Shown: positions 2,993-26,008 of the stretch, one piece after another
Position numbering within the stretch: position 1 is the stretch's first letter
Layout of the letters: every line of letters starts with the position of its first letter
Origin: an uncultured Bacteroidales bacterium
GTDB lineage: Bacteria; Bacteroidota; Bacteroidia; Bacteroidales; UBA10428
Direction: 5' to 3'
Assembly: GCA_964406315.1 (NCBI GenBank)
Contig: CAYORG010000007.1
Location: 19,245 to 83,244 of the forward strand
Length of the DNA stretch: 64,000 nt
Notes under the pieces: generated by a model
Database searches by the model: none
Seen by the model: the letters and a program-made list of their open reading frames with translations, nothing else
What the model was told of the DNA's origin: nothing
Made by a program: the position numbers and the translations under genes

Positions 2993-2994
2993 TT

Positions 2995-4530
2995 ATGAGG
3001 AACGGAATGTATATAGTAATAGCAAGTTTCTTTCTTCTTACTTCCTGTGAAGACTGGCTGGATGTAAACCAGGATCCGAATAATCCGTCGGAGGAACAGG
3101 TGAGTTATGAATCGGTTCTTTCATCAGGCATATCATCAATAGCGTATGTTGTTGGAGGAAGATACCAGGTGCTTGGTGCTTTGTGGTCACAACATTGGAC
3201 CCAGTCCCTGGGTGCTTCACAATATGCAGGTATTGATGCATATGATATCAATAGCAGCAGTTTTGACGACAGACAATTTGGAGAATTGTATGCAGGAGCT
3301 TTAAAAGCGTTGGAATACGTGAGGATTGAATCGGAGAAAGAAGAGGAGTGGAATTATTATCTGATAACCACAGTATTGCAGGTGTATACATTTCAGATCC
3401 TCGCTGATTTGTACGATGAGGTCCCTTTCTCAGATGCTTTGCAGGGTGAAACAGGCAATGTAACTCCAGTTTATGAAAAAGGGCAGGATGTTTATGATAG
3501 TCTTATCGTAAGGCTTGACGTTGCTCTTGCCAAAGACTTTGATATTCAGGAAATGAAAGATCCGGGGGAATCCGACCTGATTTTCAGTGGCAACATAGAT
3601 CGCTGGATAGAATTTGCAAACACATTGAAATTAAAAATATTTATGCGTCAGAGTGAAGTGCGACCAGAATTAGCCAGACAGGGCATAGAAAAATTATACG
3701 ATAATGAAGTTGATTTTTTAGTAACCGATGCACGTATGGATTATTTCCATGATGCAACAGGAGAAAGAAATCCGCTTTATGAAACAGAGGAGAATGTATT
3801 GGGAGGGAATCCGAATTTGATATTGAGCCGCACATTACACAGTTTTTTGCAGGATAATAGTGATTTCGACAGACTGGATTTAATGTTTAATACTCCTGCT
3901 GACGGAGGGCCTCATAAATCCCTGATTCAGGGCAATTATAATGATCCGGATGAACCGGCCGGAACAAACCATACAAGCTATTCAAAGCCTGTTTTCCTTG
4001 CAAACGCACCTGTTTATTTCATGAGTTCTTCGGAAGCATGCTTTTTACAAGCTGAAGCAATGATCCGTTATAATGTTGGTTCTTATTCCGATGCAAGAGA
4101 CAAATACAATCAGGCTATTACAAATGCATTTATACGCCTTTTATCTGTTAACACTTTTTTTACAGAGGATGATATTATCGAACGTGCGGCATCTTTTATT
4201 AACGGTCCGTATAGATTACCCGCGGAAGGCAGCCCGCTTGAGGAATCGGTCAAATCCATTATGATCCAAAAATGGATTGCTCTTGCAGGCATTCAGAGTT
4301 TGGAAACCTTTTTTGAGCACAACCGCACTCATTATCCTGAAATATGTGATGTATTGCCTGATGATGAGGATTATGAACCCGGACAGTTTACAATATCTGT
4401 GAACAATGTAACTAGCGGCAGATTTCCAAAACGATTGATATTCCCGGAATCAGAAATATCGGGAAATCCAAATACACCTGAACCTAAAGCTGTATGGGAA
4501 AAGGTATGGTGGGATACAAAACCGGAATAA
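2995..4530 (+). CDS. SusD/RagB-family nutrient-binding outer-membrane lipoprotein
   Basis: 511 aa with a lipoprotein signal (FFLLTSC) followed by CEDWLDVNQDPNNP, typical of the SusD family. Paired with the upstream SusC homolog. Confidence 0.88.
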   Translation: MRNGMYIVIASFFLLTSCEDWLDVNQDPNNPSEEQVSYESVLSSGISSIAYVVGGRYQVLGALWSQHWTQSLGASQYAGIDAYDINSSSFDDRQFGELYAGALKALEYVRIESEKEEEWNYYLITTVLQVYTFQILADLYDEVPFSDALQGETGNVTPVYEKGQDVYDSLIVRLDVALAKDFDIQEMKDPGESDLIFSGNIDRWIEFANTLKLKIFMRQSEVRPELARQGIEKLYDNEVDFLVTDARMDYFHDATGERNPLYETEENVLGGNPNLILSRTLHSFLQDNSDFDRLDLMFNTPADGGPHKSLIQGNYNDPDEPAGTNHTSYSKPVFLANAPVYFMSSSEACFLQAEAMIRYNVGSYSDARDKYNQAITNAFIRLLSVNTFFTEDDIIERAASFINGPYRLPAEGSPLEESVKSIMIQKWIALAGIQSLETFFEHNRTHYPEICDVLPDDEDYEPGQFTISVNNVTSGRFPKRLIFPESEISGNPNTPEPKAVWEKVWWDTKPE

Positions 4531-4537
4531 TATTTTA

Positions 4538-5185
4538 ATGAAAAAAAGTTTTGCATATTATTTGATAGGATTCTTATTCCTGATTACAGGATGTGAAAAG
4601 TGGTATACAACAGAAGATGTATCACATGTTTCTTATCTCCCGGAATTCGAATTGGAAGGAGGTGAGTTTATATCAATTCAAAGATCAGACACATCAGAAT
4701 TTGAAGATCCGGGTGTTGCAGCTTATGCTGATGGAGAAGAATTAACGGTATATGCATCCGGAGAGGTGGATCTGACAGAAGTTGGAGTTTACATTATAAG
4801 GTATTTTGCTTTGAATCAGGATAACCTGCTGGGTACTGCGGAGAGAATTGTTGCAGTTACACATCATGATGTAAACAGCAATGATCTGTCAGGTACCTAT
4901 TCAACTGATATTTGGGGCCTTGTGGAATCGAAAATGAAAAAGATAGAAAAGAATGGACTTTATGAAAGTGAAGATGTGATGGGATTCCCGGGGTATCAAA
5001 TTCAGGGAAGGTTCGTTGATCTTGGAAATGATGAACTGGAATTAATTCATGGAGAAGGATACTTTGGCAGATATAGCGGATCAGAGGGATCATATACACG
5101 ATCGACACTGTCCTGGACGATATTTCTTGTGGATCCTCCTTACGAAGGTGTTGAGATTGAGGTATTATGGAGAAAAAAAAATTAG
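4538..5185 (+). CDS. PUL-associated surface lipoprotein with Ig-like (DUF5011-like) segment
   Basis: 215 aa with lipobox LFLITGC. The segment PGVAAYADGEEL..GVYIIRYFALNQDN resembles Ig-like domains common downstream of SusD genes. Confidence 0.55.
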   Translation: MKKSFAYYLIGFLFLITGCEKWYTTEDVSHVSYLPEFELEGGEFISIQRSDTSEFEDPGVAAYADGEELTVYASGEVDLTEVGVYIIRYFALNQDNLLGTAERIVAVTHHDVNSNDLSGTYSTDIWGLVESKMKKIEKNGLYESEDVMGFPGYQIQGRFVDLGNDELELIHGEGYFGRYSGSEGSYTRSTLSWTIFLVDPPYEGVEIEVLWRKKN

Positions 5186-5186
5186 T

Positions 5187-5744
5187 ATGAGTATTAAAAG
5201 TGAAATTGCAATTGTCTTATTCCTGGTATCAAGCCTGATGTCCTGCATACAAAAAGAATATGATATTGAATATCAGGATGATTACCCTAATAAGTTTGCA
5301 GGGAATTGGATTGTTTTTGAATTTCCAGGCGGTGAAATTGGAACTACCCTGTATGAACCCTATGACCTGGTAACATCTCTTGATCCCAACAACAAGGGAT
5401 ATATGATTATTGACAAACTATACGATTCAGATACGAGAGTGAGAGCGGAGTATTCTGACAGTGCTTTTTATGTTTATATGGGAGAACAGCTTGAACAAAT
5501 CAGCACGAATACATATGATATAGAATATATTAGTGTGGATGGATACATTACTGCTAATCCTGTATTGATTAATATGGCTTATAATTTCGCTGCTTTATCT
5601 TTTGAAAGTATTTCATTCGAAATTTCTGATATAGAGGATATTATATATATGCATGCAGGTTTTTATGATGCCTACAAGACTGTGGTTGATACGGTTCTGA
5701 TAATAGGATACAGAAAGACCGGGTTTGAAGAGACAACTTATTAA
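5187..5744 (+). CDS. hypothetical lipoprotein (PUL-associated)
   Basis: The start is moved to the internal ATG at 5187, giving MSIKSEIAIVLFLVSSLMSC with a lipobox, 1 nt after the upstream stop. The track ORF from 5049 overlaps the preceding gene. Confidence 0.55.
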   Translation: MSIKSEIAIVLFLVSSLMSCIQKEYDIEYQDDYPNKFAGNWIVFEFPGGEIGTTLYEPYDLVTSLDPNNKGYMIIDKLYDSDTRVRAEYSDSAFYVYMGEQLEQISTNTYDIEYISVDGYITANPVLINMAYNFAALSFESISFEISDIEDIIYMHAGFYDAYKTVVDTVLIIGYRKTGFEETTY

Positions 5745-5761
5745 AGTTTAGCAAACGTAAT

Positions 5762-8700
5762 ATGAAAAATATCGAAAAGAAATATTATGGGCATATCATA
5801 ATTGCTTTATTCGTTTTGGTTTTCAGCATTATACTTATTCCCGGAAAGGATCTGAAAACAAATTCGAATCCCGGGTCGATGATCCCCGGTTATGATAAAC
5901 CTGAAGGATATTATGAATTTTTCCGGAGGATAACCACACCGATTGGCGCTGATGAAAGCGATTATAAAACGAACTACCGGTATGAGGAATTGCAAAAGGC
6001 TTTGGAAGCTCATCCCTTTGAAAAATCAGGGAAAAGTATTTTCAACTGGACACATAGAGGACCGGGAAATGTTGGGGGAAGAACCAGGAAAGTTATCATT
6101 GACCCTGAAGACCCGACGAATATGACCTGGTTTGCGGCTTCAGCCAGTGGTGGCGTGTGGAAGACGACAGATGGAGGAGAATCCTGGCAGCATCTTACGG
6201 ATGAATTGTCGAATCTTGCAACCAATGCAATTGCTATGGCATCCTCAAATCATGACGTATTGTATATCGGAACAGGAGAAGGATATGGTGGATTTGGCAT
6301 GGTCAATGGAAGTGGGATGTACAGAAGTAATGACAAGGGAACAAGCTGGATCCCAATTGATACCACTATAGAGGATGAGAATTTTAAGTGGGTCAATCAA
6401 ATCATTGTGAATGAAAATGATGAGGATATAGTACTGGCTGCTACCAACTCCGGTATTTTCAGATCCATGAACGGCGGACTGACCTGGGATACAACTTACT
6501 TTACAGGACATGCAGTTCAGGATATAGCTGTAAATCCTTTGGATTGTAATACATTGTATGCAGGTGTGAACAAATGGGGCATTATTAAATCATACAACCA
6601 GGGGATCAAATGGTTCGATGCCATTGAAGGTATAGCCACAGGATCAAGATTTTCCGTAACCGTAAGTCCTGTCGATACAAATTTCATTTATACGAGCGTG
6701 GAAGCTCCTGATCTGGAAACGCATGTATATGCCTCTGACGATGGAGCCCAGAGCTGGAAAAAGCTTAACGATTACAACCAGACTTTCATTCATTTCCTCG
6801 GTGTTCAGGGATGGTTTAATAATATTATCAAAGCCCATCCCTTTTCTAAGAACAAAGTTTTTATCGGAGGAGTGGATCTGGGTTGTATTGAATTCAAAAA
6901 TACGACCAATGTAAGTGAACCACAGGTTTTAAGAACAGATACATTTGGAACGGCATCATTTATGGGTTTTGTTAATTTTGGCGGGATTTCGCTTGGAGGA
7001 GGTATGTCCACAGGTCTTGATGAAGAAGCTGATATTGAAGAAGAAGATTTCACCAGCATCGAAATACGATTTGGTCCGGGAAAATCTCAAAAAGCACATC
7101 GATTTATCGTGCCGGAAGGTGAAGGGCCGGGAGTGCCACCTGAAGATTATACATACATGGATTACATAGAAGTTGATTTTGAAGCATGGGATACGGATAA
7201 CAACAGGCAGCTCATGGTATCCTTCAGAGATCAGGAGAGAGACGGAGAATTTAACCTGATAAAAAGGGAATACGGTGATGATATTAGTGGCAGAGAATAC
7301 CTGTTTGTTCATGCAATGGAATACAAGAATGATCCTGATCCTGAAATTTCAATGGATGGAGGACATTATCATAAAATGATGTATTTTTTCTGGCCGACTC
7401 TTGGTGAGGATCTCGAAACTATGCCGGAGGTTATTCCTGAATCAAGAATACGTGTGAAATACGGATCTTTGTTATTGCAGGATGCAAATACTACGATCCT
7501 TGCGGATGCCAGCAGGAATACCCAATTGCATGTAGATCATCATGATTTACACTTTATTATTACAGATGAAGAGAATGAAAAATTTTCAATTCTCGATGCA
7601 AATGACGGGGGATTTGGTTTTTCAACCGATCAGGGAAATACCTGGAAACAGATCAATAAGGGGTATTTGACTACCCAGTTCTATGGCGTTGCGAAAAAAC
7701 CCGGAAGTCATGAATATATTGGAGGAATGCAGGATAATGGCACATGGCAGTCGCCCATAGGTGAGATTGCAACAGCCGGTTCTGAATACGAAAGCAGGGT
7801 AGAAGGTGATGGTTTTGAATGTCTGTGGCATCCTGTATATCCGCATCGCATCCTGGCTTCTTCCTATTACAATTTGTTTAAAGTGTCAAATGACGGAGGG
7901 GAAACCTGGAGTTCTGCTACCAATGGAATTATAGGGGATGGGCCTTTTCTCTCCAGACTCTCACATTCGCCAAATAATCCGGACCTGGTATTCGCCGTTG
8001 GTAACTGGGGTGTATACAGACATACTAACTTTTGTATTGGAAGATACGATTGGGAATTGATCGAAATTGATGATGGATGGTCTATTGAAGATCAGGTTAC
8101 AAGTTCTCATAGTGTGGAAGTATCATTGGCAGATGAAAAAATAGTATGGGCAGGGGCAGGAATGTATGAAAATCCTGATCTGTCTGTGTTTTTATCAAAG
8201 AATTACGGTAAGACATTTGAACCGGTGAATCTATATGATGAATGGGAAATGGGCTATCTTACTTCTATTGCAACCCATCCGACAGATCCTGCAACAGCCT
8301 ACCTTTTGTTTTCAATGAATAAGAGACCAAAAATTCTCAGGACTGAAGATTTTGGTGAAACATGGGAAGATATTACTTGGTTTGAAAAAACTGACAGTAC
8401 AAGTCATAATGGTTTTCAGGATATCATGGTATATTCATTGTTGGTTTTTCCGTACAATACTGATATAATTTGGGCAGGAACGGAAATTGGCATTTTTGAA
8501 AGTACTGATAACGGAGTATCCTGGCATTTGGCAAACAGCGGTTTGCCAAATGTTTCGGTATGGCAAATGTTTATTCAGGACAATACTTTGGTGGTGGCTA
8601 CGCACGGAAGGGGAATCTGGACAGCTCCTCAATATCCGGGAGCAATTGAAGAAAATGAAATGCAGGAAATACTATGCATTCAGACATATCCAAATCCTTC

Positions 8701-8920
8701 TTATGGCATCGTTCATCTTGAATTCGAATCAGATGATTTTGGCAATGTAAATGTTGTGGTTTATAACCTGAAAGGTGAAAAAGTGTATCAAAATAGTTTT
8801 ATTAAGAACAGCAACATGTTTCATGAGCTATTAAATCTGGAAACTCTTTTTGCCGGCTCGTATATTCTCTTTGCTGAGCTTGATGGGAATGTATTTGTCT
8901 CAAAACTAATCTTAAACTGA
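5762..8920 (+). CDS. BNR/Asp-box beta-propeller protein (sortilin/GH74-like fold) with T9SS C-terminal sorting domain
   Basis: 1052 aa with an N-terminal signal/TM. It has about 9 Asp-box-like repeats (TTDGGESW, SNDKGTSW, SMNGGLTW, ASDDGAQSW, STDQGNTW, SNDGGETW, TEDFGETW, STDNGVSW). The last ~80 aa (TYPNPSYGIVHLEF...VVYNLKGEKV...LILN) look like a type A Por/T9SS sorting domain. Confidence 0.8.
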   Translation: MKNIEKKYYGHIIIALFVLVFSIILIPGKDLKTNSNPGSMIPGYDKPEGYYEFFRRITTPIGADESDYKTNYRYEELQKALEAHPFEKSGKSIFNWTHRGPGNVGGRTRKVIIDPEDPTNMTWFAASASGGVWKTTDGGESWQHLTDELSNLATNAIAMASSNHDVLYIGTGEGYGGFGMVNGSGMYRSNDKGTSWIPIDTTIEDENFKWVNQIIVNENDEDIVLAATNSGIFRSMNGGLTWDTTYFTGHAVQDIAVNPLDCNTLYAGVNKWGIIKSYNQGIKWFDAIEGIATGSRFSVTVSPVDTNFIYTSVEAPDLETHVYASDDGAQSWKKLNDYNQTFIHFLGVQGWFNNIIKAHPFSKNKVFIGGVDLGCIEFKNTTNVSEPQVLRTDTFGTASFMGFVNFGGISLGGGMSTGLDEEADIEEEDFTSIEIRFGPGKSQKAHRFIVPEGEGPGVPPEDYTYMDYIEVDFEAWDTDNNRQLMVSFRDQERDGEFNLIKREYGDDISGREYLFVHAMEYKNDPDPEISMDGGHYHKMMYFFWPTLGEDLETMPEVIPESRIRVKYGSLLLQDANTTILADASRNTQLHVDHHDLHFIITDEENEKFSILDANDGGFGFSTDQGNTWKQINKGYLTTQFYGVAKKPGSHEYIGGMQDNGTWQSPIGEIATAGSEYESRVEGDGFECLWHPVYPHRILASSYYNLFKVSNDGGETWSSATNGIIGDGPFLSRLSHSPNNPDLVFAVGNWGVYRHTNFCIGRYDWELIEIDDGWSIEDQVTSSHSVEVSLADEKIVWAGAGMYENPDLSVFLSKNYGKTFEPVNLYDEWEMGYLTSIATHPTDPATAYLLFSMNKRPKILRTEDFGETWEDITWFEKTDSTSHNGFQDIMVYSLLVFPYNTDIIWAGTEIGIFESTDNGVSWHLANSGLPNVSVWQMFIQDNTLVVATHGRGIWTAPQYPGAIEENEMQEILCIQTYPNPSYGIVHLEFESDDFGNVNVVVYNLKGEKVYQNSFIKNSNMFHELLNLETLFAGSYILFAELDGNVFVSKLILN

Positions 8921-8970
8921 GTATTATAACAGGATTATTCACCTGTAAAATCAGGTTCCGCAGTATTTAT

Positions 8971-8978
8971 TATATTTG
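8971..8978 (+). promoter_or_regulatory. candidate Bacteroidetes -7 promoter element (TATATTTG) upstream of cysD
   Basis: Matches the TAnnTTTG consensus. Lies 117 nt upstream of the cysD ATG. There is no other support. Confidence 0.3.
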
Positions 8979-9094
8979 CAAACTACTTAATCTGCATCAT
9001 TTATAAACAATATATTTTTTCCATGTTTATAAATAATACGGATTAAAAAAGTGAAATTTCATTTTACAAATTACATTGTCAAGATCTCTATAGG

Positions 9095-10000
9095 ATGGAA
9101 AATTACAAGATCAATCATTTGCGTGAGCTGGAGGCGGAATCAATTTATGTGATCAGAGAGGTTGCAGCACAATTTGAACGACCGACTCTTCTTTTTTCAG
9201 GTGGTAAAGATTCCATTGTTATGTATTATCTTGCGCGAAAAGCTTTCTGGCCTGCAAAAGTGCCATTCCCGCTCTTGCATATCGATACAGGACATAATTT
9301 TTCGGAAACACTCGAGTTCAGAGACAAGCTGGCAAAAGATACCGGGGTACAATGTATTGTCAGGTTCGTTCAGGATTCTATTGATCAGGGGAAAGTCCAG
9401 GAAGAAACCGGAGTCTATGCCAGCCGCAATGTCTTACAGACTGTTACCCTTCTTGATGCAATCGAAGAATTGAAATTTGATGCAGCTTTGGGTGGAGGAA
9501 GAAGAGATGAAGAGAAAGCACGGGCTAAAGAACGTTTTTTTTCTCATCGTGATGAATTTGGACAATGGGATCCGAAAAATCAGCGTCCGGAATTATGGAA
9601 TCTTTTTAACAGTAAAAAGAAAATCGGAGAACATTTCAGGGTATTTCCATTGAGCAATTGGACCGAGATGGATATATGGCAATACATATACATGGAAGAT
9701 ATTGAAATACCTGATTTGTATTTTACTCATAAAAGAAGAGTTTTTAATCGGGATGGAGTGTGGCTTGCAGAAGCGCCATTTATGAAATTAAAAGACAATG
9801 AAAAAATACAGGAACTGGATGTTCGTTGCAGAACCATTGGAGATATTACCTGTACAGGACTTACGCTCTCAAAAGCAAATTCACTTGAAGATATAATAAG
9901 AGAAGTTGCAGCGACAAGAACTACTGAAAGAGGAGGAAGGGCAGATGATAAAAGATCTGAGGCTGCCATGGAAGATCGTAAGAAAGAAGGGTATTTTTAA
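9095..10000 (+). CDS. cysD: sulfate adenylyltransferase subunit 2
   Basis: 301 aa with the PAPS-reductase/ATP-PPase motif FSGGKDS and a conserved CysD C-terminus (GERGGRADDKRSEAAMEDRKKEGYF). Confidence 0.93.
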   Translation: MENYKINHLRELEAESIYVIREVAAQFERPTLLFSGGKDSIVMYYLARKAFWPAKVPFPLLHIDTGHNFSETLEFRDKLAKDTGVQCIVRFVQDSIDQGKVQEETGVYASRNVLQTVTLLDAIEELKFDAALGGGRRDEEKARAKERFFSHRDEFGQWDPKNQRPELWNLFNSKKKIGEHFRVFPLSNWTEMDIWQYIYMEDIEIPDLYFTHKRRVFNRDGVWLAEAPFMKLKDNEKIQELDVRCRTIGDITCTGLTLSKANSLEDIIREVAATRTTERGGRADDKRSEAAMEDRKKEGYF

Positions 10001-10204
10001 TTAAAAATTAAGAATTAAGAATTAAAAATTAAGAATTAAAAATTAAGAATGAATAATTGGGTTGGCTGGAGTTTAGAAGCCTGCAATGTAGAAATGAGAA
10101 GGCAAAAGGTAAAAGGCAAAAGGCAGAAAAAACAAACAATTACCAAGACCAGCGACTAATAACTAACAACTTGAGACTAACATCTAACTCTAAACTTAAA
10201 ATTA
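10001..10204 (+). repeat. word-repeat spacer between cysD and cysN: (TTAARAA)x8 then degenerate 7-mers including (AAGGYAR)x4
   Basis: Read directly. 10001-10056 is ttaaaaa/ttaagaa x7 plus tgaataa, starting at the base after the cysD TAA. 10099-10126 is aaggcaa aaggtaa aaggcaa aaggcag. 10150-10200 is a run of ..acta/..acttgagacta.. 7-mers ending at the cysN ATG. Confidence 0.85.
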
Positions 10205-11485
10205 ATGTCAGATTTTCAGGACAAGCAAGACGGATATTTGAATATGCAGCTCCTTCGTTTTACTACGGCAGGAAGTGTTGATGATGGAAAAAGCACCTTA
10301 ATAGGACGTTTGCTCTATGATAGCAAAGCAATTTTTGAAGACCAGATGGAAGCCATTGAAAGGGCGAGTATTAATAAAGGTGACGAACATGTGAATCTGG
10401 CATTGCTTACAGATGGATTAAGAGCAGAAAGAGAACAAGGTATTACGATAGATGTTGCATATCGTTATTTTGCTACTCCAAAACGAAAATTTATCATAGC
10501 CGATACACCTGGTCATGTTCAGTATACACGTAACATGGTCACCGGGGCATCCACTGCCAACGCAGCTATCATTCTTGTCGACGCCAGAAATGGCGTGGTT
10601 GAACAGACTTTACGACATTCATTCATTGCATCCTTGTTGCAAATCCCCCATATCATTATTTGTATTAATAAAATGGATCTTGTGGGTTATAAAGAAGAGA
10701 TTTTTGAAGAAATCAGGAAAAACTATGAGAGTGTTTCCGATAAATTTGATGTGCAGGATATTCGTTTTGTACCTATAAGCGCATTAAATGGAGATAATGT
10801 GGTTGACAGATCAGAAAATATGGATTGGTACGATGGACCTACGCTCATGTATCTTCTTGAAAATATACATATCGCAAATGACAGAAATTTTAAAGATCCG
10901 CGTTATCCTGTTCAATATGTTATTAGACCTCAATCAGAAAAACACCACGATTTCAGGGGATATGGCGGACGAATAGCAGGTGGAGTATTTAAACCTGATG
11001 ATAAAGTTACGATACTGCCATCCGGATTTACCGCTCAAATCCATTCTATTGAAACAATGAACAGAAAATTGGATAAGGCATTTCCTCCTCAATCTGTTGT
11101 TATTACCTTGAAAGATGACCTTGATATCAGCAGGGGAGATATGATCGTAACTGCAGAAAATCAACCAAGAGTCAGCCAGGATCTTACGTTTATGTTTTGC
11201 TGGCTGAATGAGAAGGCTCTTGAACCTGGTAAGAAATATGTTCTCAGACATACAACAAATGAAGCAAAGTGCATTGTAAAATCAGTCGATTTTAAAGTGA
11301 ACATAAATACTTTGGAAAAGAATTTTGAAGATAAAAATGTTGGATTGAATGAAATTGGGCAAATGACTGTGCGGACAACAAAACCAATTGTTTATGATAC
11401 CTACAAGATAAACAGGGTTACCGGTAGTATAATCCTTGTGGATGAAAGTACGAATGAAACTATTTGTGCCGGAATGATTTCCTGA
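10205..11485 (+). CDS. cysN: sulfate adenylyltransferase subunit 1 (GTPase, no APS-kinase domain)
   Basis: 426 aa with GTPase motifs GSVDDGKST, DTPGH and NKMD. An alternative start at 10244 (MQLLRF) is possible. Confidence 0.92.
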   Translation: MSDFQDKQDGYLNMQLLRFTTAGSVDDGKSTLIGRLLYDSKAIFEDQMEAIERASINKGDEHVNLALLTDGLRAEREQGITIDVAYRYFATPKRKFIIADTPGHVQYTRNMVTGASTANAAIILVDARNGVVEQTLRHSFIASLLQIPHIIICINKMDLVGYKEEIFEEIRKNYESVSDKFDVQDIRFVPISALNGDNVVDRSENMDWYDGPTLMYLLENIHIANDRNFKDPRYPVQYVIRPQSEKHHDFRGYGGRIAGGVFKPDDKVTILPSGFTAQIHSIETMNRKLDKAFPPQSVVITLKDDLDISRGDMIVTAENQPRVSQDLTFMFCWLNEKALEPGKKYVLRHTTNEAKCIVKSVDFKVNINTLEKNFEDKNVGLNEIGQMTVRTTKPIVYDTYKINRVTGSIILVDESTNETICAGMIS

Positions 11486-11508
11486 ATGATTTAGTGTCAA
11501 TTATCATA

Positions 11509-12276
11509 TCAGGGAACAGGAAGCCGTTTGATGGAATATAATTCATGAGTGTGTTTATGAAGTTCACTATTATAAATGCCCTTCTCATCAATGGAATCAA
11601 TTCTAACCGAAATTGAAGCATGGATAATTTTGTTTTCTCCGGCATATATTCCAACATGTGAAATTTTATTTTCCTGATTTCTGAAAAAGAGAAGATCACC
11701 GGGCAAAACAGAATTCAGATCTTTTACATCTTCTCCTTTTTCGGCCTGATCTTTTGCATCTCTTGGAAGCAATAGTTCATGGATTTTAAATACTGTTTGC
11801 ACAAAGCCTGAGCAATCAAAACCAAAGATTGTACGTCCGCCCCATAAATACGGAGCGTTTAAAAATTGTTTTGATGTTGTCAGAAGATTTCTCCTGCTTG
11901 TTTCACTTTCCGGAGGAAGATGATCCTTCAGATAGAAGGTGTTGTTGGCGAGGGTAAACTTATCGCCGGATTTTACGGAAGGTATTTCAGATCCTGCGGG
12001 GATAATGATATTCTGATTCTCTTTTTGTATATTGAAATATGGTTTTGAAATTATCTGCATTGCATGATCTGTTGATCTACCTGTGTAAAAAACCAGTGAT
12101 CTCTCTTCTACCCAGCCACAAAAATGATCAAAATCAGTTGTTATGTTAAGCCAATCGCCATTTTGCTCAATGACTTTTACTGTTTCACCAAACAAGAGTT
12201 GACTGGCTTGTTCAGCCTTATGATTGGGTTCAGACCGGATTGGGATAAGCGGATGAAGACAAATTGCCTGGTTCAT
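11509..12276 (-). CDS. NlpC/P60 (C40) cell-wall peptidase with N-terminal SH3-like domain
   Basis: Catalytic core FDCSGFVQ...ISHVGIYAG..IIHAS. The start is moved to the ATG at 12276 (MNQAICLHPLIPIR), because the upstream 31 codons are AT-rich and low complexity. Confidence 0.8.
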   Translation of the reverse strand: MNQAICLHPLIPIRSEPNHKAEQASQLLFGETVKVIEQNGDWLNITTDFDHFCGWVEERSLVFYTGRSTDHAMQIISKPYFNIQKENQNIIIPAGSEIPSVKSGDKFTLANNTFYLKDHLPPESETSRRNLLTTSKQFLNAPYLWGGRTIFGFDCSGFVQTVFKIHELLLPRDAKDQAEKGEDVKDLNSVLPGDLLFFRNQENKISHVGIYAGENKIIHASISVRIDSIDEKGIYNSELHKHTHELYSIKRLPVP

Positions 12277-12429
12277 TGAATAAAAGAATAACTTGCATTC
12301 AATATTAAAGAAATTAAACATAATTTTTATATATATGTTGATGATATATTGGAGAATATGGCTTTTCATGATAACATCATAAAAAAGCTTGCTAAAATTT
12401 GGTATTTTTAGCCCAATAAATAGCTGTAT

Positions 12430-14571
12430 ATGCCTTCGATATATAATAAGATAGTAAGCAATTATAAATACTTTGGGACGATACTAGTATTTATCCTGGC
12501 ATTTTTGCTAATAGCCTATATGATGCCAAGGGAAAGAAAATTTACTTATATTTTTCAAAAAGGAAGTCCCTGGAAAGGAGAAAATCTGACTTCTCCTTTC
12601 AAGTTTTCGATTTATAAAACACCTGAGGAGTACCAGGCAGAAGCCGACTCTATTCTCCATGATTTAAAACTCTATTTTACCTTTGACCCCTATGAGTTTG
12701 CAGAACAGTTAAACAAATTTAAAGAAGGTTTTCGCAAGGAATGGATTGATTTCACTTTACAGGAATTTAATATATCATCTGAAGAAGTTTATTTGGAAAG
12801 TGGAAGATATGCTTCCCTTCGAACATTGCAGGATTATTATGATGACCTTATATACAAGTTACTGGAAAAAATCTATCTGAAAGGCATCATTGAGATTCCG
12901 GAAAGGGATATAGCATTTGATGGATCGACCTATATCGTTTTAATGCGAGGAAATATTGCTGAAGAAAAAAATGCTTCTGAATTGTTTACACCAAAATTGG
13001 CTTATGAGTTCATGAAATCAAAAATAAAGGAAGAAGTTGCATCCGATTCAAAAAGAAATATCTCACATTATAAAGATTTTTTTGATCTGTTTGAGTTAGA
13101 TAAGTACATTACTCCGAATATATTTTACGATAGTGGTGCTTCAGAAAGAGAAAAAACTGAAAGGTTGGCAGAAGTATCAATGAAAAAAGGCATGATACAA
13201 CAAGGAGAGCTTATTATTTCTGAAGGAGAAATTGTTACACAGGAAAAGTTCCAGATTTTGCAGTCGCTTAAGATAGCGTATGATGAGAAACAGGGAAATG
13301 TAAATAAATTTCTGGTTCTTTCAGGCAAACTGATTTTTGTACTTTTGTCTCTGGTACTTATTTATGTTTTTCTCTACAATTTCAGACGTGAACTTTTAAG
13401 AGATCTTGTAAAAACCTCTTTTATATTGTTTATGGTGGTTCTGATGATTTTTGTCGCCAGTACTACGGCAAAAATCGAGAAAGTAAGTTTTTACATCATT
13501 CCTTTTACAATATTGCCCATCATTCTGCGTACTTTTTTTGATGAGAGAGTTGCAGTTTTTGTCCATGTTCTCACAACACTTATCATTGCATTTATAGCCC
13601 CAAATAGTTATGAATTTATAGTGTTGAATATTCTGGCAGGGATTGTCGCCATTTTCAGCTTAACGAATCTTTACCGGCGTTCCAGATTTTTTGTTTCTGC
13701 ATTACTTGTTGTTATTACCTATTGTTTGGCTTATTATGGGATGTCGGTAGTTCGTGAAGGTAGTTTTACGAATATTAAGCTTGAATATTTTGCCAACTTT
13801 GGACTTAACGGAGTATTAATCCTTATTTCATTTCTGCTGATTTATGTATTTGAAAAAACGTTTGGCTTTTTATCTGATACAACGCTAATAGAACTGGCAG
13901 ATACAAATCAACCTCTGTTACGTAAAATCGCAGAAATAGCCCCGGGAACTTTCCAACACTCATTGCAGGTTGCTAATCTTTCGGAAGAAGCGATTCATCG
14001 CATTGGAGGTAATCCTCTGTTGGTTCGCACAGGCGCGTTGTATCATGATATAGGCAAAATTCATGATCCGATATATTATATTGAAAATCAAACCACCGGC
14101 ATCAATCCGCACGATAATCTTGAATTTGAGGAAAGTGCCAGGATAATTATCAGTCATGTTGAAAAAGGAGTCGAAATGGCAAGAAAGAATAATCTTCCGG
14201 ATGCAATAGTTGATTTTATTCGGACTCATCATGGTACTTCAACGGTTCAATATTTCTATAAATCCTATATTAAAAAATATCCTGAACAGGAAGTAGATGT
14301 TAAGAAATTCAGTTATCCCGGACCAAAACCTTCTTCAAAAGAAATGGCTGTCCTTATGATGGCTGATGCAGTTGAAGCTGCTTCAAGAAGTTTGCTTGAG
14401 TATAGTCATGAAAACATCAATGATCTTGTCGAAAATATCATTTCGAGGCAATTGAAACAGGGGCAGTTTGAAGAAGCTCCAATTACCTATGTTGATATTA
14501 AAACCGTCAAGGAAGTTTTTAAAACAAGGTTGATAAATATCTATCATGCAAGGATATCTTATCCAAAATAA
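12430..14571 (+). CDS. 7TM-receptor/HD-domain phosphohydrolase (PgpH/YqfF-like)
   Basis: 713 aa with an N-terminal TM, an extracellular region, about 7 TM helices, and a C-terminal HD domain (HSLQVANL, ALYHDIGK, RTHHGTS). Confidence 0.85.
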   Translation: MPSIYNKIVSNYKYFGTILVFILAFLLIAYMMPRERKFTYIFQKGSPWKGENLTSPFKFSIYKTPEEYQAEADSILHDLKLYFTFDPYEFAEQLNKFKEGFRKEWIDFTLQEFNISSEEVYLESGRYASLRTLQDYYDDLIYKLLEKIYLKGIIEIPERDIAFDGSTYIVLMRGNIAEEKNASELFTPKLAYEFMKSKIKEEVASDSKRNISHYKDFFDLFELDKYITPNIFYDSGASEREKTERLAEVSMKKGMIQQGELIISEGEIVTQEKFQILQSLKIAYDEKQGNVNKFLVLSGKLIFVLLSLVLIYVFLYNFRRELLRDLVKTSFILFMVVLMIFVASTTAKIEKVSFYIIPFTILPIILRTFFDERVAVFVHVLTTLIIAFIAPNSYEFIVLNILAGIVAIFSLTNLYRRSRFFVSALLVVITYCLAYYGMSVVREGSFTNIKLEYFANFGLNGVLILISFLLIYVFEKTFGFLSDTTLIELADTNQPLLRKIAEIAPGTFQHSLQVANLSEEAIHRIGGNPLLVRTGALYHDIGKIHDPIYYIENQTTGINPHDNLEFEESARIIISHVEKGVEMARKNNLPDAIVDFIRTHHGTSTVQYFYKSYIKKYPEQEVDVKKFSYPGPKPSSKEMAVLMMADAVEAASRSLLEYSHENINDLVENIISRQLKQGQFEEAPITYVDIKTVKEVFKTRLINIYHARISYPK

Positions 14572-14572
14572 A

Positions 14573-15223
14573 TCAGAATCTTAGATCGACTATTTCAATG
14601 TTTTTATGATTTTCCGGCTGAAAGGTAAAAATACTGTTTTCAAGATCTGCATTGTATTTTGCATTGAATAAGGATGCGCTGTAATCAATTCCATCTTTAC
14701 CAATTGCTTTAATAATAAATAATTCATCAGTGTCTTTGTTAATTAAAACTTTAAAACGCGAATAAGGTTGGTCAAGGTTTTTCGGAAACAGGTCTATTTC
14801 ATACATCCAACCTTCATCGAGTTTCACTTCTCCGATGAACCGGTATTTAAAATCACGATTGTAGAAATCAAAGATTTTTGAAGGATCTTCAACAAAATCA
14901 TTGTCACTGATATCAGGTATTGAGATAACCACCTCGTTTATATCTTCCTGAAATGTATACAATGTTACCCCGTCAAAATAGACTTTTGATCCAGGAGATT
15001 CCATATAGTATTTATCGCCTTTTATTTTTATTGAGCCGTTGGTTCTGGAAACTTTGTTTTCCCGCCTGTTTTCAATGGTCAATTCAAAGTCAGCCTGAAT
15101 GGTAGCATATGATTTTGTCTTCTGAGCCACTCTGTCAAGGATCTTTTTGGCTTCCGGATCTTGCTGGGCCATTAAGGTACAAGCAGTAAATACCAGGATA
15201 TGAATAATTGTAATTTTTTGCAT
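14573..15223 (-). CDS. lolA: LolA-like outer-membrane lipoprotein carrier protein
   Basis: 216 aa with a signal peptide and a LolA-like N-terminus (AKKILDRVAQKTKSYATIQADFELT). The position downstream of ftsK is the usual Bacteroidetes synteny. Confidence 0.7.
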   Translation of the reverse strand: MQKITIIHILVFTACTLMAQQDPEAKKILDRVAQKTKSYATIQADFELTIENRRENKVSRTNGSIKIKGDKYYMESPGSKVYFDGVTLYTFQEDINEVVISIPDISDNDFVEDPSKIFDFYNRDFKYRFIGEVKLDEGWMYEIDLFPKNLDQPYSRFKVLINKDTDELFIIKAIGKDGIDYSASLFNAKYNADLENSIFTFQPENHKNIEIVDLRF

Positions 15224-15303
15224 TTGGTATTTAGTTAATTACGTTTCTAAAATCTATCAAACAATTTAACTCATCATTTTCATTTCGGAATGCGGATTTT
15301 GGA

Positions 15304-15490
15304 TTAGCTTCGCTGAGCTCTCCCGATAAAATCGAGATCGGTTGCGGATTATGTGCTTCGAAAGTTCTCAACTCACCAACTCATCAACTAATCAACTCCT
15401 CCGACTTCTGACTCCCGACTTCCGACTTCAAGCTCAAAACTCTAAACTTCTCACCCTTTTACCTTCTTACCTTCCGACTTCCGATTTTCC
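15304..15490. repeat. ftsK-lolA spacer repeats: partial element A (15304-15345) plus a G-poor 7-8-mer word array with CCGACTT x5
   Basis: 15304-15320 is ttagcttcgctgagctc, followed by tcccgataaaatcgaga and gatcggttg (compare 18143-18175). 15366-15490 is tcaNcaac and ccgactt words, with ccgactt at 15401, 15415, 15422 and 15474 and ccgattt at 15481. I count 7 G in about 125 nt. The array ends 2 nt from the ftsK stop codon. Confidence 0.85.
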
Positions 15491-15492
15491 CA

Positions 15493-17886
15493 TTATTCAA
15501 GCGAATTCAAATATTGTTCCAAAGAATATTCATCAGGAAAAAGAACCTGTCTTGCTTTACTTCCCTCAAATTGTCCGACAATTCCGGCAGCTTCAAGCTG
15601 ATCGATAATGCGTCCTGCACGGTTGTAGCCTATCGAGAACTTTCTTTGTATCAAAGAGGTTGAGCCTTGCTGATGGGCTACGACTAATCTTGCAGCATCA
15701 CTGAACAAGCTGTCTCGTTTTGAAAGATCCACATCCAGTAATCCATCACCTGCATTTTCATCAACATATTCAGGCAAAAAGAATGGAGTGGGGTAGGAAG
15801 GTTGTTTTCCTATATAACTAGTAATTTGCTCCAGCTCCGGAATATCAATAAATCCGCATTGTAATCTGATCAGATCGCTTCCCGGAGCAAACAGCAAATC
15901 ACCTCTGCCTACAAGTTGATTTGCTCCGGGAGTATCAAGTATTGTACGTGAATCGATCATAGAAGTAACCCGAAATGCAATTCGGGCAGGGAAATTTGCT
16001 TTTATCACACCGGTAATGATATTTGTTGTGGGCCGTTGGGTAGCAATTACAAGATGAATTCCAATTGCTCTTGCCACTTGAGCAAGGCGCGCTAGCGGTG
16101 TCTCAACTTCACGACCTGCTGTCATAATTAAGTCAGCAAATTCGTCAATAACAACTACAATATAGGGCATATACCTGTGTCCGTTTTCCGGGTTGAGCCT
16201 TCTTTTGATAAACTTCCGGTTATATTCTTTGATATTCCGAACCTGTGCTTTCTTCAGCAAATTGTACCGGTCATCCATTTCGATTGTTAATGAATTAAGA
16301 GTATTTATAACTCTTTGTGTATCAGTAATAATAGTTTCTTCCGAATCGGGAATTTTTGCCAGATAATGTTTTTCAATTTGTGAATAGAGAGTAAGTTCCA
16401 CTTTTTTCGGATCTACAAGGACAAATTTCAATTGAGCAGGATGCTTTTTGTAAAGCAGTGAAGTTATGATTACATTCAGGCCAACAGATTTTCCCTGTCC
16501 GGTTGCTCCTGCAACAAGCAAGTGAGGCATTTTTGCCAGATCAAAAACATACGTTTCGTTCGAGATAGTTTTGCCAAGAGCTATAGCCAGATCATAATCC
16601 GAATCCTGGAATTTTCTGGAAGAGATCAGTGAGCGCATAGAGACAATTTCGGGTGTCTGATTTGGAACTTCAATGCCAATTGTTCCTTTACCTGGTATGG
16701 GCGCTATTATTCGTATTCCCAAGGCAGAAAGGTTCAGAGCTATATCATCTTCAAGATTCTTAATTTTTGAAATTCTTACACCGGGAGCCGGCACTATTTC
16801 GTATAGCGTAACAGTAGGACCGATGGTAGCTTTGATTTTATCAATCTGGATCTTATAATGCCCGAGCGTTTCAACAATTTTGTTTTTGTTGCTGATCAAC
16901 TCCTCATTTGTTACAGTTGAGTTGCCGGTTTCATGTTTTTCCAAGAGGTCCAGTGTCGGCAGTTGGAAATTCGATAATTCCAGGGTGGGATCATAATCAT
17001 CCAGGGGTAGATTTGAATTGAATTCTCCCTCTTCTTCAATTTCTTTTGATTCAACTGTAAGCTGCACATCGTCTTTTTCGTTACTATCAGATGACTCACT
17101 TACAAAACCTGATTTTGCAGTGAATTCTTCAGTTTCTGAGCTTCGTTCATTTTGAGGGAATTCGGTTTCAAAGATCAGGTCACTATCTTCTTCATTGCTT
17201 TGATCAACTTTGTTTTTAAAATGTATTCCGGAATCATATAAATCCCTGTCTGTTTTCGTTTTGAAGAAAAACAAATGCCTGCCAAGGATCTTTTTAACAT
17301 GAACAAGTGATTTTTCAAATGCAAACAATATAACACCAATACTTGCTATAAGAAGAAGCAAAAATACGCCGATCCTGCCTAAAAGACTTGTCAGAAATAG
17401 ACTCATATAATGTCCGTGTCTTCCTCCGGGTCCCGATCCTAAAATAACACTTGATTCAAAAAAATAACCAAGCCATACGGAAAGAACAATAACACAAAAA
17501 AGGGTAGCTAAAAGTGTTTTTCCAAAATGAAGCAATTTAATATTAATAAATCTCAGACCATAAAGAATTAATAGAAAAGGAAAAGCAAAAGAGGCAACGC
17601 CAAACCACCTGTTTATTGTAAGATTGGCCAGGAAAGCTCCCGTTTTGCCTGCCCAGTTTTCAACAATCATCTCAGCACTGGCCCATTCAATATTCCCTTG
17701 AATACTCTGGTCGGTTTTCCAGGTAAACAAATAGGAAAGTTGGGAGATAAAGAGCAAAAACCCAAAAGCAATAAAAAGGAAAGCCATTAAGATCCTAAAG
17801 CGTTCATCCCGTATGAATCCTAAAATGCCTCTTTTCTTTTTTGATTTTCTTGCAGCAGATTTATTTTTCCCTTCTTTTCCTGCCAT
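15493..17886 (-). CDS. ftsK: DNA translocase FtsK/SpoIIIE
   Basis: 797 aa with N-terminal TM helices, an acidic linker, a motor domain with Walker A GATGQGKS and DEFADL, and a C-terminal gamma winged helix (STSLIQRKFSIGYNRAGRIIDQLE). Confidence 0.95.
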   Translation of the reverse strand: MAGKEGKNKSAARKSKKKRGILGFIRDERFRILMAFLFIAFGFLLFISQLSYLFTWKTDQSIQGNIEWASAEMIVENWAGKTGAFLANLTINRWFGVASFAFPFLLILYGLRFINIKLLHFGKTLLATLFCVIVLSVWLGYFFESSVILGSGPGGRHGHYMSLFLTSLLGRIGVFLLLLIASIGVILFAFEKSLVHVKKILGRHLFFFKTKTDRDLYDSGIHFKNKVDQSNEEDSDLIFETEFPQNERSSETEEFTAKSGFVSESSDSNEKDDVQLTVESKEIEEEGEFNSNLPLDDYDPTLELSNFQLPTLDLLEKHETGNSTVTNEELISNKNKIVETLGHYKIQIDKIKATIGPTVTLYEIVPAPGVRISKIKNLEDDIALNLSALGIRIIAPIPGKGTIGIEVPNQTPEIVSMRSLISSRKFQDSDYDLAIALGKTISNETYVFDLAKMPHLLVAGATGQGKSVGLNVIITSLLYKKHPAQLKFVLVDPKKVELTLYSQIEKHYLAKIPDSEETIITDTQRVINTLNSLTIEMDDRYNLLKKAQVRNIKEYNRKFIKRRLNPENGHRYMPYIVVVIDEFADLIMTAGREVETPLARLAQVARAIGIHLVIATQRPTTNIITGVIKANFPARIAFRVTSMIDSRTILDTPGANQLVGRGDLLFAPGSDLIRLQCGFIDIPELEQITSYIGKQPSYPTPFFLPEYVDENAGDGLLDVDLSKRDSLFSDAARLVVAHQQGSTSLIQRKFSIGYNRAGRIIDQLEAAGIVGQFEGSKARQVLFPDEYSLEQYLNSLE

Positions 17887-17909
17887 GGTCTCTTTTAAAT
17901 TTTGATAGT

Positions 17910-17917
17910 CAAAGTTA
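17910..17917 (-). promoter_or_regulatory. candidate -7 promoter element (TAACTTTG on minus strand) upstream of ftsK
   Basis: The reverse complement of caaagtta matches TAnnTTTG, 24-31 nt upstream of the ftsK ATG. I saw no clear -33 TTTG. Confidence 0.25.
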
Positions 17918-18097
17918 ATAAGCGTACTTTCTTAACATAAAATTATTTGAATTATTATTTAACAATTGAAGTTAATCGGATGTGAGATTCTGAGATGGTG
18001 AGACTTTAGACTTGAGACCAGAGATTTGCAACTATTCTTTGGTTGCTTGTTGCCGCGAGTGGTGTTTAACTGTTGAATCGTGTAACTGTGTAATTGA

Positions 18098-18175
18098 CTT
18101 CCCTGCCAGCCGGTTTACCTGCCGAAGGTATGGCAGGCTGGGTCGAGCTCTCCCGATTTTTATCGGGATCGGTTG
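18098..18175 (+). repeat. dispersed element A, copy 1
   Basis: cttccctgccagccggtttacc (18098-18119) is identical over 22 nt to 22235-22256. atggcaggctggg (18130-18142) is identical to 22266-22278. Internal hairpins are CCAGCC/GGCTGG and tcccga-ttttta-tcggga (18151-18168). Confidence 0.85.
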
Positions 18176-18485
18176 TGTAACTGTTTAATCGTTAAACTGA
18201 TGAGTTGATCGAATGGAACTTGAAACTTGAGACTATTTTGGTTGCTGGCTTTGCCCACTGAAGTTTTAACGTAGGCGGAATGCTGGGTCAAACGATTAAT
18301 CGGGGAATCGGTGAATCGATGAAATGAAGACTAATGATTTAACTTATTCAATATGGTTCAGTTAATCGATTGCCCGGTTAATCAGTTAATCAATTACACG
18401 ATTATACAATTCAACGATTACACTAATTTTAAATCTTGAGATGCAAAGCTGGAAACCAGTGACCAGAAACCAAAGAATTAGAGAC

Positions 18486-24962: not shown

Positions 24963-25558
24963 TGCATTACCTCCTCTTGCTGTCTGGTTTTTACAATTTT
25001 TTGAGCCGATTTGGATAAATTGTCCTCATCTTCCATAAATCGTTTGATTTTCAATATTGCCTCTTCATAACCTGGAATCTGAACTTTTTCAAAAAGGTTT
25101 ACTTTTTGTGTGGTCTTTTTTCTGGCATAATTCAGCAATTCCATCTTACGGGAGAATACTTCACGTTCTATAGCCAGGCTAATTGTTTCTTTCAGAAGCT
25201 CAATTCCACCGAGAAACCATTTGGGAGCATTAAACACACTGAATTCAGCTACAAAGAAATCAATTTCACTCAGAACAGGAGTTTTAACACCGGCAATTTT
25301 TTTTATGTCCAGTTTTACATCTTCAATACCTACAAGGTTTTCGTCAAACTCTCCCCAAAGCTCAACCATTTTTTCATAAGATTTGATCTTATGATTCAGC
25401 TCATTATCAAGTCTGTTTGCTTCATCTTTTGCCTTTTTCACCTCAATCCTCAATGCCGACTCTTTATTTTTAATGGTAGGCAATGCGCGTACTCTGATCT
25501 TAAGCTGCTTCTCGAGAGCCTGAAGTGAAGTCTTATTGTATTGAAATTTTATGGCCAT
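24959..25558 (-). CDS. atpD: V-type ATPase subunit D
   Basis: Coiled-coil protein at the D position of the operon. The start is moved to the ATG at 25558 (MAIKFQYNKTSLQALEKQLK), because the track start at 25594 would overlap the four-helix-bundle gene. Confidence 0.75.
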   Translation of the reverse strand: MAIKFQYNKTSLQALEKQLKIRVRALPTIKNKESALRIEVKKAKDEANRLDNELNHKIKSYEKMVELWGEFDENLVGIEDVKLDIKKIAGVKTPVLSEIDFFVAEFSVFNAPKWFLGGIELLKETISLAIEREVFSRKMELLNYARKKTTQKVNLFEKVQIPGYEEAILKIKRFMEDEDNLSKSAQKIVKTRQQEEVMQ

Positions 25559-25577
25559 CTTAATTAATTGCTGGTTG

Positions 25578-25955: not shown

Positions 25956-26008
25956 TTACCAAATCCTTTCTATTTGCTTTTTCTTGTGACTTGCGACTAG
26001 AGACTTTT

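Follow-up and report, generated by a model that had tools for sequence, protein, structure and literature searches.

In the stretch of DNA analyzed here (64,000 nucleotides, referred to below as the window), which comes from an uncultured salt-marsh Bacteroidales bacterium, the sulfate adenylyltransferase genes cysD and cysN are separated by a 204-nt spacer (10001-10204) that consists largely of tandem 7-nt words. What kind of repeat is this, how could it have arisen, and is it a control element of the downstream gene? A preliminary description took it for a repeat family that inserts at the stop codons of operon-internal genes and is tolerated, or used, in polycistronic mRNA. We found three short period-7 arrays in the spacer, and arrays of 7- and 8-nt words are enriched in the non-coding DNA of the whole genome. 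These arrays follow a common layout, 5' C-poor and then 3' G-poor on either strand, that is independent of gene orientation. On balance, we consider it probable that the cysD-cysN arrays are tolerated, slippage-driven arrays of a known class with a fixed layout.

Three period-7 arrays between cysD and cysN

The open reading frame (ORF) at 9095-10000 (+ strand) matches the NCBIfam profile NF003587 for CysD (sulfate adenylyltransferase subunit 2; 451 bits) and ends in a TAA stop at 9998-10000. The ORF at 10205-11485 (+) matches the NCBIfam profile TIGR02034 for CysN (subunit 1; 563 bits), so both gene identities proposed earlier hold. The CysN ATG and N-terminus are kept in a sister species (genome G006).

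The spacer begins with array A, seven copies of TTAARAA plus TGAATAA, which Tandem Repeats Finder (TRF) places at 9999-10058 (+; period 7, 8.6 copies). This array is free of C and begins within the cysD stop codon; from 10001 to 10056 its words are TTAAAAA TTAAGAA TTAAGAA TTAAAAA TTAAGAA TTAAAAA TTAAGAA TGAATAA. It is followed by a non-periodic core of 42 nt (10057-10098, +) that is unique in the genome. Array B (10099-10126, +) consists of AAGGCAA AAGGTAA AAGGCAA AAGGCAG (TRF: 10099-10125, period 7, 3.9 copies). The rest of the spacer (10127-10204, +) is an A-rich linker and then a degenerate run of G-poor heptamers up to the cysN ATG, with words of the ACTNNNN type (ACTAATA ACTAACA ACTTGAG ACTAACA TCTAACT CTAAACT). 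C is absent from the first 56 nt of the spacer, and the last 68 nt (10137-10204) contain 5 G. The letters of the two arrays and of the run are as previously described.

The 7-nt periodicity withstands comparison with shuffled sequence. At lag 7, the spacer as a whole has an autocorrelation of 0.60 (z=9.0), a value reached at any lag by none of 1000 dinucleotide shuffles. By block, the lag-7 z-score is 6.2 for array A, 4.1 for array B and 4.0 for the run at 10127-10204, and the core shows no period-7 signal (z=1.0). About 162 of the 204 nt (~79%) are periodic, in three period-7 arrays. The spacer is thus built mostly of 7-nt words and not, as first proposed, entirely.

Could the pattern be chance low-complexity AT-rich sequence, or an artefact of assembly? 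The genome (3.66 Mb in 182 contigs) has only 37% G+C, and certain contigs break in the TTAAGAA array, which would fit such an explanation. The stretch is contained in 24 runs, judged by word share. In one of four salt-marsh runs, a contig spans positions 9850-10350 with no differences, which shows that the spacer region is no assembly artefact; in the other three, the contigs break within array A. The explanation has practically no probability left and is already refuted by the spanning contig, by the shuffles, by an excess over shuffled spacers that is confined to periods 7 and 8 (see below) and by homologous spacers in independent genomes of the genus. The Logan contigs of the four runs show no copy-number polymorphism in the salt-marsh population. 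Over the TTAAGAA array (10003-10053), the summed contig depth in runs X1-X4 rises from ~6-23 to 210-970, with many unrelated flanks. TTAAGAA-like arrays must therefore be frequent elsewhere in these salt-marsh communities, at other loci or in other organisms.

The sister species is close enough to compare the spacers letter by letter. Its CysD and CysN are 99% and 96% identical to those studied here, and its contig is syntenic with positions 2-17966 of the window (95.3% coding identity). Its cysD-cysN spacer is homologous and 125 nt long. It contains about four TTAARAA units (four fewer than the eight here), the same TGAATAAT, a related core (roughly 70% identity, judged by eye), a single AAGGCAG and then (ACTCAAA)x3 before the same ...AAACTTAAAATTA-ATG. 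Array A is longer here by 28 nt (4x7, exactly four units), and array B has four units where the sister species has one AAGGCAG, which leaves a 22-nt gap in the alignment. All indels of at least 4 nt in the 18-kb alignment lie in two array-bearing spacers, cysD-cysN and ftsK-lolA, and the ftsK-lolA arrays are 81 nt longer here than in the sister species. Gain or loss of units in place, sometimes in exact multiples of 7, is the signature of slipped-strand mispairing, and the arrays probably gain and lose units by this route. The notion that the repeats insert has to be narrowed in consequence, since the arrays differ in part from those of the sister species by whole units in place. The AAGGYAR array is a species-specific expansion of the single AAGGCAG, which argues against the suggestion that the AAGG repeats are a conserved protein-binding or re-initiation platform.

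Within the genus, the cysD-cysN gap varies widely. It measures 20-27 nt in four genomes, which have no arrays there, and 58-86 nt in others, part of which have G-poor heptamers before cysN. It is 123-125 nt in G006 and G016, where TTAARAA occupies the left side and AACTCNAA the right side, and 204 nt in this genome. A TTAARAA array after cysD is also found in L002, in G002 and probably in G014. At larger distances (the nearest named relatives by CysD, Carboxylicivirga and Anaerophaga, are at ~80%), the two genes are rarely contiguous. The gap has a median of 51.5 nt across 74 Bacteroidota relatives (interquartile range 22-119) and measures 5 nt or less in only 3, which runs counter to the earlier premise that the two genes usually adjoin or overlap. 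Gaps of tens to hundreds of nucleotides appear to be the usual arrangement in the phylum. Among the 54 spacers of relatives that are at least 25 nt long, 21 have a period-7 or period-8 (or 14 or 16) array of their own with unrelated words; the array words at these junctions include GGACAAGG, ATTGATN, GTTATGA, AATTAGG and TAATTGA/TAACTGA.

Some of these junctions have features of their own. The cultured Anaerophaga thermohalophila (L008:1144-1386) carries TAATTGA/TAACTGA x9.7 directly upstream of cysN and may offer an experimental system. Two other cysD-cysN junctions hold long insertions, one of 1.9 kb with two antisense ORFs of 329 and 205 aa (L050:3907-5842) and one of 1.7 kb with several ORFs (L063:3901-5623). 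Another has more than 15 tandem copies of the 18-nt unit GAGAATCATTGTCAAAGG, interrupted by masked N (L037:3886-4301), and yet another a 591-nt mosaic of several 7- and 8-nt arrays (L038:3886-4476).

We searched the spacer for conventional functional elements. It contains no ORF. Its RNA folds no better than shuffled sequence (minimum free energy -25.3 kcal/mol, z=+0.57, with equal or better folding in 143 of 200 shuffles), and we rejected a hairpin or RNase III substrate on this basis. There is no Rfam match within the spacer at E<=1 and no intrinsic terminator-like site in 8800-10400. The Bacteroidetes -7 promoter motif TAnnTTTG has no match inside the spacer; the sole match in 8701-10300 is TATATTTG at 8971-8978 (+), upstream of cysD. 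A known RNA family, a terminator and a promoter were thus set aside as well. Because the spacer has neither terminator nor promoter motif, cysD and cysN would be co-transcribed, and the spacer is probably carried in polycistronic mRNA, in line with the preliminary description. A single mRNA would then contain both genes, with spacer RNA that is predicted to be unstructured, and cysN may be started independently, on an A-rich, G-poor leader.

A genome-wide class of word arrays with a strand-symmetric layout

The arrays of the cysD-cysN spacer have many counterparts in the genome. Using crude gene calls (2790 ORFs, 87% coding), we found that the density of arrays in non-coding relative to coding DNA is 14x for period 7 and 10.5x for period 8; periods 6 (1.5x) and 9 (1.1x) are not enriched. 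The spacers contain 137 period-7 and 136 period-8 arrays, compared with 18 and 22 after dinucleotide shuffling (an excess of 6-8x), and the corresponding numbers are 13 and 13 for period 6 and 37 and 35 for period 9. Genome-wide, 135 of the 1233 spacers of at least 100 nt carry an array. A recurrent, limited vocabulary is used at many loci (GGATTGC/GGATTTC, GAAGTCG/GAAGACC, GTGAGAAG, AGTTTAG, GGTTGTTA and TTAAGAA), and array junctions are often conserved. For instance, GTTTAGAGTCA precedes (GAAGNCN)n at no fewer than six loci, and the cysD-cysN spacer shares (TTAARAA)n-TGAATAAT-GGGT with a site directly after another stop (genome C5:118985). With words and junctions shared in this way, the arrays are a repeat family, as had been proposed, and not a local oddity. 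The cysD-cysN spacer is not a dispersed element of the MITE (miniature inverted-repeat transposable element) or REP (repetitive extragenic palindromic) type, which would exist in several near-identical copies with terminal inverted repeats and a target-site duplication; its array words alone recur. The core and the 148 nt at the right of the spacer have no second copy in the genome, and are absent from all fetched loci except the homologous spacer of the sister species.

To describe the orientation of the arrays, we call C-poor arrays G-type and G-poor arrays C-type. On the sense strand of the gene, stop-proximal arrays are G-type in 91 cases and C-type in 32 (31 vs 3 within 15 nt of the stop), while start-proximal arrays are C-type in 35 cases and G-type in 14 (p=8e-8 by Fisher test for the stop/start contrast, odds ratio 7.1). 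Of the arrays with G or C in their words, 34 are found within 15 nt of a stop and 2 within the same distance of a start. The earlier view that the repeats sit at operon-internal stops is therefore right about the stops and too narrow about the operons, as it is between convergent genes that arrays are commonest (0.31 per spacer, compared with 0.15 in tandem and 0.11 in divergent spacers). The G-type bias is 43:12 in convergent spacers and 48:20 in the first half of tandem spacers. Because it is equally strong between convergent genes, it does not reflect selection for expression of a downstream cistron, and we rejected such selection (anti-Rho) as the sole cause of the polarity.

The gene-directed polarity is in fact only apparent, and the layout is strand-symmetric instead. 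The median relative position on the + strand of the spacer is 0.26 for G-type and 0.71 for C-type arrays (Mann-Whitney p=2.5e-12). The G-type-first layout is seen in the ++, -- and convergent classes, and the small divergent class has the same trend (p=0.14). Spacers with both array types have the order G..C in 19 cases and C..G in 4, and array-less spacers show no such composition skew. Restated in this form, the rule is replicated in 74 more distant Bacteroidota loci, where 22 cases are concordant and 5 discordant. The cysD-cysN spacer obeys it, with a C-free array at the upstream stop and a G-poor array at the downstream start.

We also considered the structure that the arrays could adopt. 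Of the 172 typed arrays, 2 have G-quadruplex (G4) potential, defined as at least four GGG runs. Arrays of four units are not favoured, and TTAARAA cannot form a G4; a G4 explanation was rejected on these counts. In a genome-wide sample of spacers of up to 320 nt, the presence of arrays does not go with more RNA structure (median z -0.5 with arrays vs -0.88 without).

Other arrays of the window show the same features. The ftsK-lolA spacer has arrays of periods 7 and 8 (15368-15474, - strand) that are C-poor on the sense strand and follow the ftsK stop. As previously noted, AAGGTAA occurs there twice in the sense orientation of ftsK and lolA (minus strand; 15459-15465 and 15467-15473); its enrichment across the window is not significant (17 found vs 11 expected). 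Further period-7/8 arrays lie at 17982-18423, in a 0.64-kb region upstream of ftsK. The small TTAGAATTAAGAATT patch that had been noticed upstream of the V-ATPase operon is indeed present at 30722-30744 (+) and is marginal (TRF score 30). A distance of 112-134 nt separates it from the gene for subunit E (29996-30610, minus strand), the first of that operon.

A GC-rich dispersed hairpin module, GCTGAGCTCTCCCGAT(n3-4)ATCGGGATCGGTTGCGG, recurs beside arrays of the GGATTGC type, at 15313-15350 and 18143-18175 in the window and at C97:~500-560 and C101:~2190-2250 elsewhere in the genome. In the ftsK-lolA spacer of the sister species, an additional 59-nt hairpin module (CCTGCCAGCC...GGCAGGCTGG) stands beside the GC-rich one, and a related copy lies at ~18100-18140 of the window.

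Two contigs of the genome end in (TTAAGAA)n in compatible orientation (C74:10508-10570 with 9 units and C152:3269-3317 with at least 7). If they join, the result would be a TTAAGAA-only spacer that reaches from a stop codon (the array starts 3 nt after it) to the ATG of a signal-peptide gene. The ends of contigs C31, C122, C130 and C181 also lie within arrays. The repeats thus fragment the assembly; arrays of this kind break short-read assemblies and inflate the apparent intergenic novelty of metagenome-assembled genomes.

Array arms around four-helix-bundle genes

Words like those of the cysD-cysN arrays also flank genes. The genome contains five genes of the four-helix-bundle family PF05635/TIGR02436 (23S rRNA intervening sequence (IVS) protein), none of them in the cysD-cysN spacer, and no GxxExxY (PF13366) genes. 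All five are enclosed by inverted arms of 7-8-nt arrays, C-poor upstream and G-poor downstream on the sense strand of the gene. Across the genus, 21 of 29 four-helix-bundle loci (19 genomes) lie above the 95th percentile of a control set of 274 genes for inverted flanks.

One such cassette is located in the window. Its gene (25578-25955, - strand) lies inside the V-ATPase operon, between the genes for subunits B (26009-27331) and D (24959-25558). The upstream arm (about 25983-26008) reads AGTCTCT AGTCGCA AGTCACA and the downstream arm (about 25568-25598) ACTTGAG ACTAAAA ACTAGCA; the last seven codons of the ORF and its stop are encoded by the downstream arm. The same V-ATPase site is occupied in two genus members (L116 of G001 and L134 of G010), with different arm words. 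Words similar to those of the spacer serve as cassette arms at several loci: TGAATAA/TTAATAA/TTAAGAG in L136, an AAGGCAA-containing repeat as the upstream arm in L128 (G006), AAAAGGCAAAAG in L108, and ACTTGAGACTAA in the cassette of the window itself. In the last case, a 13-nt stretch (about ACTTGAGACTAA) is common to the run at 10127-10204 and the arm at 25568-25598, a match that is not significant alone.

In more distant relatives, the cysD-cysN junction itself holds such genes. A TIGR02436 gene with inverted arms is found there in L019 and L041, and a TIGR04256 (GxxExxY) gene with inverted arms in L026, L045 and L057. In one more case the junction has kept the arms and lost most of the gene: L025 (3907-4174) can be aligned with L041 (3907-4398) over both arms, and is the same cassette minus ~236 nt of its gene. 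The four-helix-bundle frame of L041 is shortened by a stop, with homologous sequence beyond it, and of the gene the 3' third is left in L025. The pair is direct evidence that a cassette at this junction can give rise to a gene-less arm-core-arm spacer. The spacer studied here shares with these cassettes the arrays of 7-8-nt words, C-poor in 5' and G-poor in 3'; it contains no PF05635, TIGR02436 or TIGR04256 ORF, and its arms are not complementary.

Origin of the arrays and comparison with known repeat systems

We return to what the spacer is. In the reading that we favour, it would be non-coding, co-transcribed DNA between two cistrons, whose three short tandem arrays are members of a class of 7-8-nt word arrays (heptameric simple-sequence repeats) found throughout the genome and across the Bacteroidota. 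These would be tolerated passengers and not a cysN-specific control element. A number of observations weigh against this. A small vocabulary recurs at many loci with conserved junctions, which slippage from random seeds does not explain, and pure slippage does not account for the consistency of the layout either. The non-repeat core differs between genus members with similar arms. Co-transcription and neutrality are both points that we infer. A TTAARAA array has been kept after cysD in several genus members, with CysD identities as low as ~91%, which could reflect selection instead of neutrality.

The recurrence of junction modules at several loci favours copying over independent origin, and would agree with a spacer that began as an IVS-like cassette. 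A C-poor arm, a four-helix-bundle or GxxExxY gene and a G-poor arm would have landed after the cysD stop; the gene would then have been lost, while the arms drifted, were reshaped by slippage and ceased to pair. We regard this origin, the main alternative to our reading, as rather unlikely. It draws on the inverted arms around all five genes of the genome and around most loci of the genus, on the genes found at the same junction in five relatives, on the remnant in L025, and on the fact that words like those of all three spacer arrays act as arms elsewhere (L136 for array A, L128 and L108, and 25568-25598). Yet the spacer has no recognisable gene remnant, its core is unique in the genome, its arms do not pair and its RNA folds no better than shuffles. 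None of the 12 genus members examined has a gene at the junction, array-bearing spacers in general are not more structured, about 135 array-bearing spacers of at least 100 nt face only five genes, and the word matches are short and not individually significant. That the arrays are a working cis-element in the cysD-cysN mRNA seems improbable to us. One possibility would be repeated binding of an RNA-binding protein (S1, cold-shock or CsrA-like, cf. the TAACTGA proposal); another would be a "Rho-proof" spacer, C-free and unstructured, together with a G-free leader through which cysN translation or the CysD:CysN ratio is set independently of cysD. The lack of C after the stop and the scarcity of G before cysN agree with this, as do G-poor heptamer runs before the cysN ATG in at least six genus members, with differing words, and the TAACTGA/TAATTGA array of Anaerophaga; a post-transcriptional role has been proposed for start-proximal heptamers (MacGregor 2015, PMC4679880). 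However, species with 99% identical CysD differ in the number of units and even in whether arrays are present, genus members with 20-27-nt gaps do without arrays, and the words are not specific to cysD-cysN. Convergent spacers, which lead to no downstream cistron, show the C-poor-first layout just as strongly, and no regulatory effect was found for analogous repeats (Rehm 2015, PMC4692102).

A broader idea, which we offer as a speculation and think unlikely as a whole, is that the 7/8-mer arrays of Bacteroidota, and by extension the heptamers of Xanthomonas, Nostoc and Beggiatoaceae, are footprints of a single uncharacterised DNA-level process that builds or moves cassettes. Such cassettes would have a C-poor arm in 5' and a G-poor arm in 3', with a four-helix-bundle or GxxExxY gene or no cargo between them, and the process would target the 3' side of stops; the cysD-cysN junction would be a recurrent landing site and the spacer a gene-less derivative. 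A strand-symmetric layout would be expected from 5'->3' extension, with one and the same G-containing word, on the two flanks of a break or insertion site. The question of what bacterial heptamer repeats are is sharpened by the near-absence of G4 potential, by the strand-symmetric layout, and by the link between array-like words and the arms of four-helix-bundle genes, with a junction that shows a cassette in one relative and a gene-deleted remnant in another.

Several known systems invite comparison. Contingency simple-sequence repeats lie in a promoter or at the 5' coding end, where a change of units switches expression, typically of surface or antigen genes. The cysD-cysN arrays do not resemble them, as they lie between two housekeeping cistrons, outside the coding frames and without a promoter motif. 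The 23S rRNA IVS of Leptospira and Coxiella carry a PF05635/TIGR02436 ORF and are excised by RNase III at the stem of their ends. The same gene family is found here between complementary arms that could form a stem, and these arms are built of words like those of the cysD-cysN arrays. Unlike an IVS, the cysD-cysN spacer has neither ORF nor stem, and the cassettes of this genome lie in mRNA operons instead of rRNA. For tandem heptamers proper, Mazel et al. in 1990 are said to have described short tandemly repeated repetitive (STRR) heptamers in cyanobacteria. Mrazek et al. in 2007 reportedly surveyed long simple-sequence repeats with 5-11-nt units, found them in non-coding DNA with heptamers as the most abundant, and proposed an origin by slippage. 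To our knowledge, neither the strand-symmetric layout nor the link to four-helix-bundle genes is reported in these two surveys. The spacer is ordinary for its genome, yet it is a clean example for the old question of the nature of bacterial heptamer repeats, which runs from 1990 through 2007 to 2015.

A close match is with the GGGAATC repeats of Xanthomonas and the GGGGA(C/T)T repeats of Nostoc (Rehm 2015, PMC4692102). These are in excess in non-coding DNA. On the coding strand, their G-rich strand overlaps the stop or lies no more than 50 bp from it, and on the non-coding strand they are located upstream of ORFs. They lie close to the 5' neighbouring ORF whatever its orientation, form convergently oriented inverted pairs and are rare between divergent genes. 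At the same locus, their length and sequence vary strongly between close relatives, the associated genes are housekeeping genes, and no function of the repeats was found (PMC4692102). The arrays described here agree in their tandem 7-nt units, their non-coding excess, the G-type arrays on the stop side and C-type arrays on the start side, the occurrence of convergently oriented inverted pairs, the rarity between divergent genes, the association with housekeeping genes and the variation in copy number between relatives. They differ by a large vocabulary (TTAAGAA, AAGGCAA, GGATTGC, GAAGTCG, GTGAGAAG and others), by a period of 8 that is as common as 7, by their occurrence in Bacteroidota, and by the lack of a G4-capable unit (GGGNATC) with a four-unit preference. 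As the positional rules hold in a Bacteroidales genome almost without G4 potential, G4 formation is unlikely to be their common basis.

The TAACTGA direct repeats of marine Beggiatoaceae, some Cyanobacteria and five Bacteroidetes are intergenic and strain-specific, and often end a few nucleotides before a start codon in the "forward" orientation (MacGregor 2015, PMC4679880). The same paper, summing up the 2007 survey, gives heptamers as the commonest long simple-sequence repeat, possibly generated by polymerase slippage. The spacer resembles these repeats in that its G-poor run extends to the cysN ATG with words (ACTAACA, ACTAATA) close to the rotated unit ACTGATA, and Anaerophaga carries the TAACTGA-type repeat itself at the cysD-cysN junction. 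This genome, by contrast, has no tandem sets of TAACTGA (503 singletons), and its G- or C-containing arrays mostly abut stops, not starts. An association with four-helix-bundle or GxxExxY cassettes was not met in the heptamer-repeat literature that we compared (Rehm 2015; MacGregor 2015). The cysD-cysN spacer is thus a further case of the intergenic heptamer repeats already described. What distinguishes the arrays of this genome is their large vocabulary, a period of 8 on a par with 7, the near-absence of G4 potential and the link to four-helix-bundle/GxxExxY cassettes.

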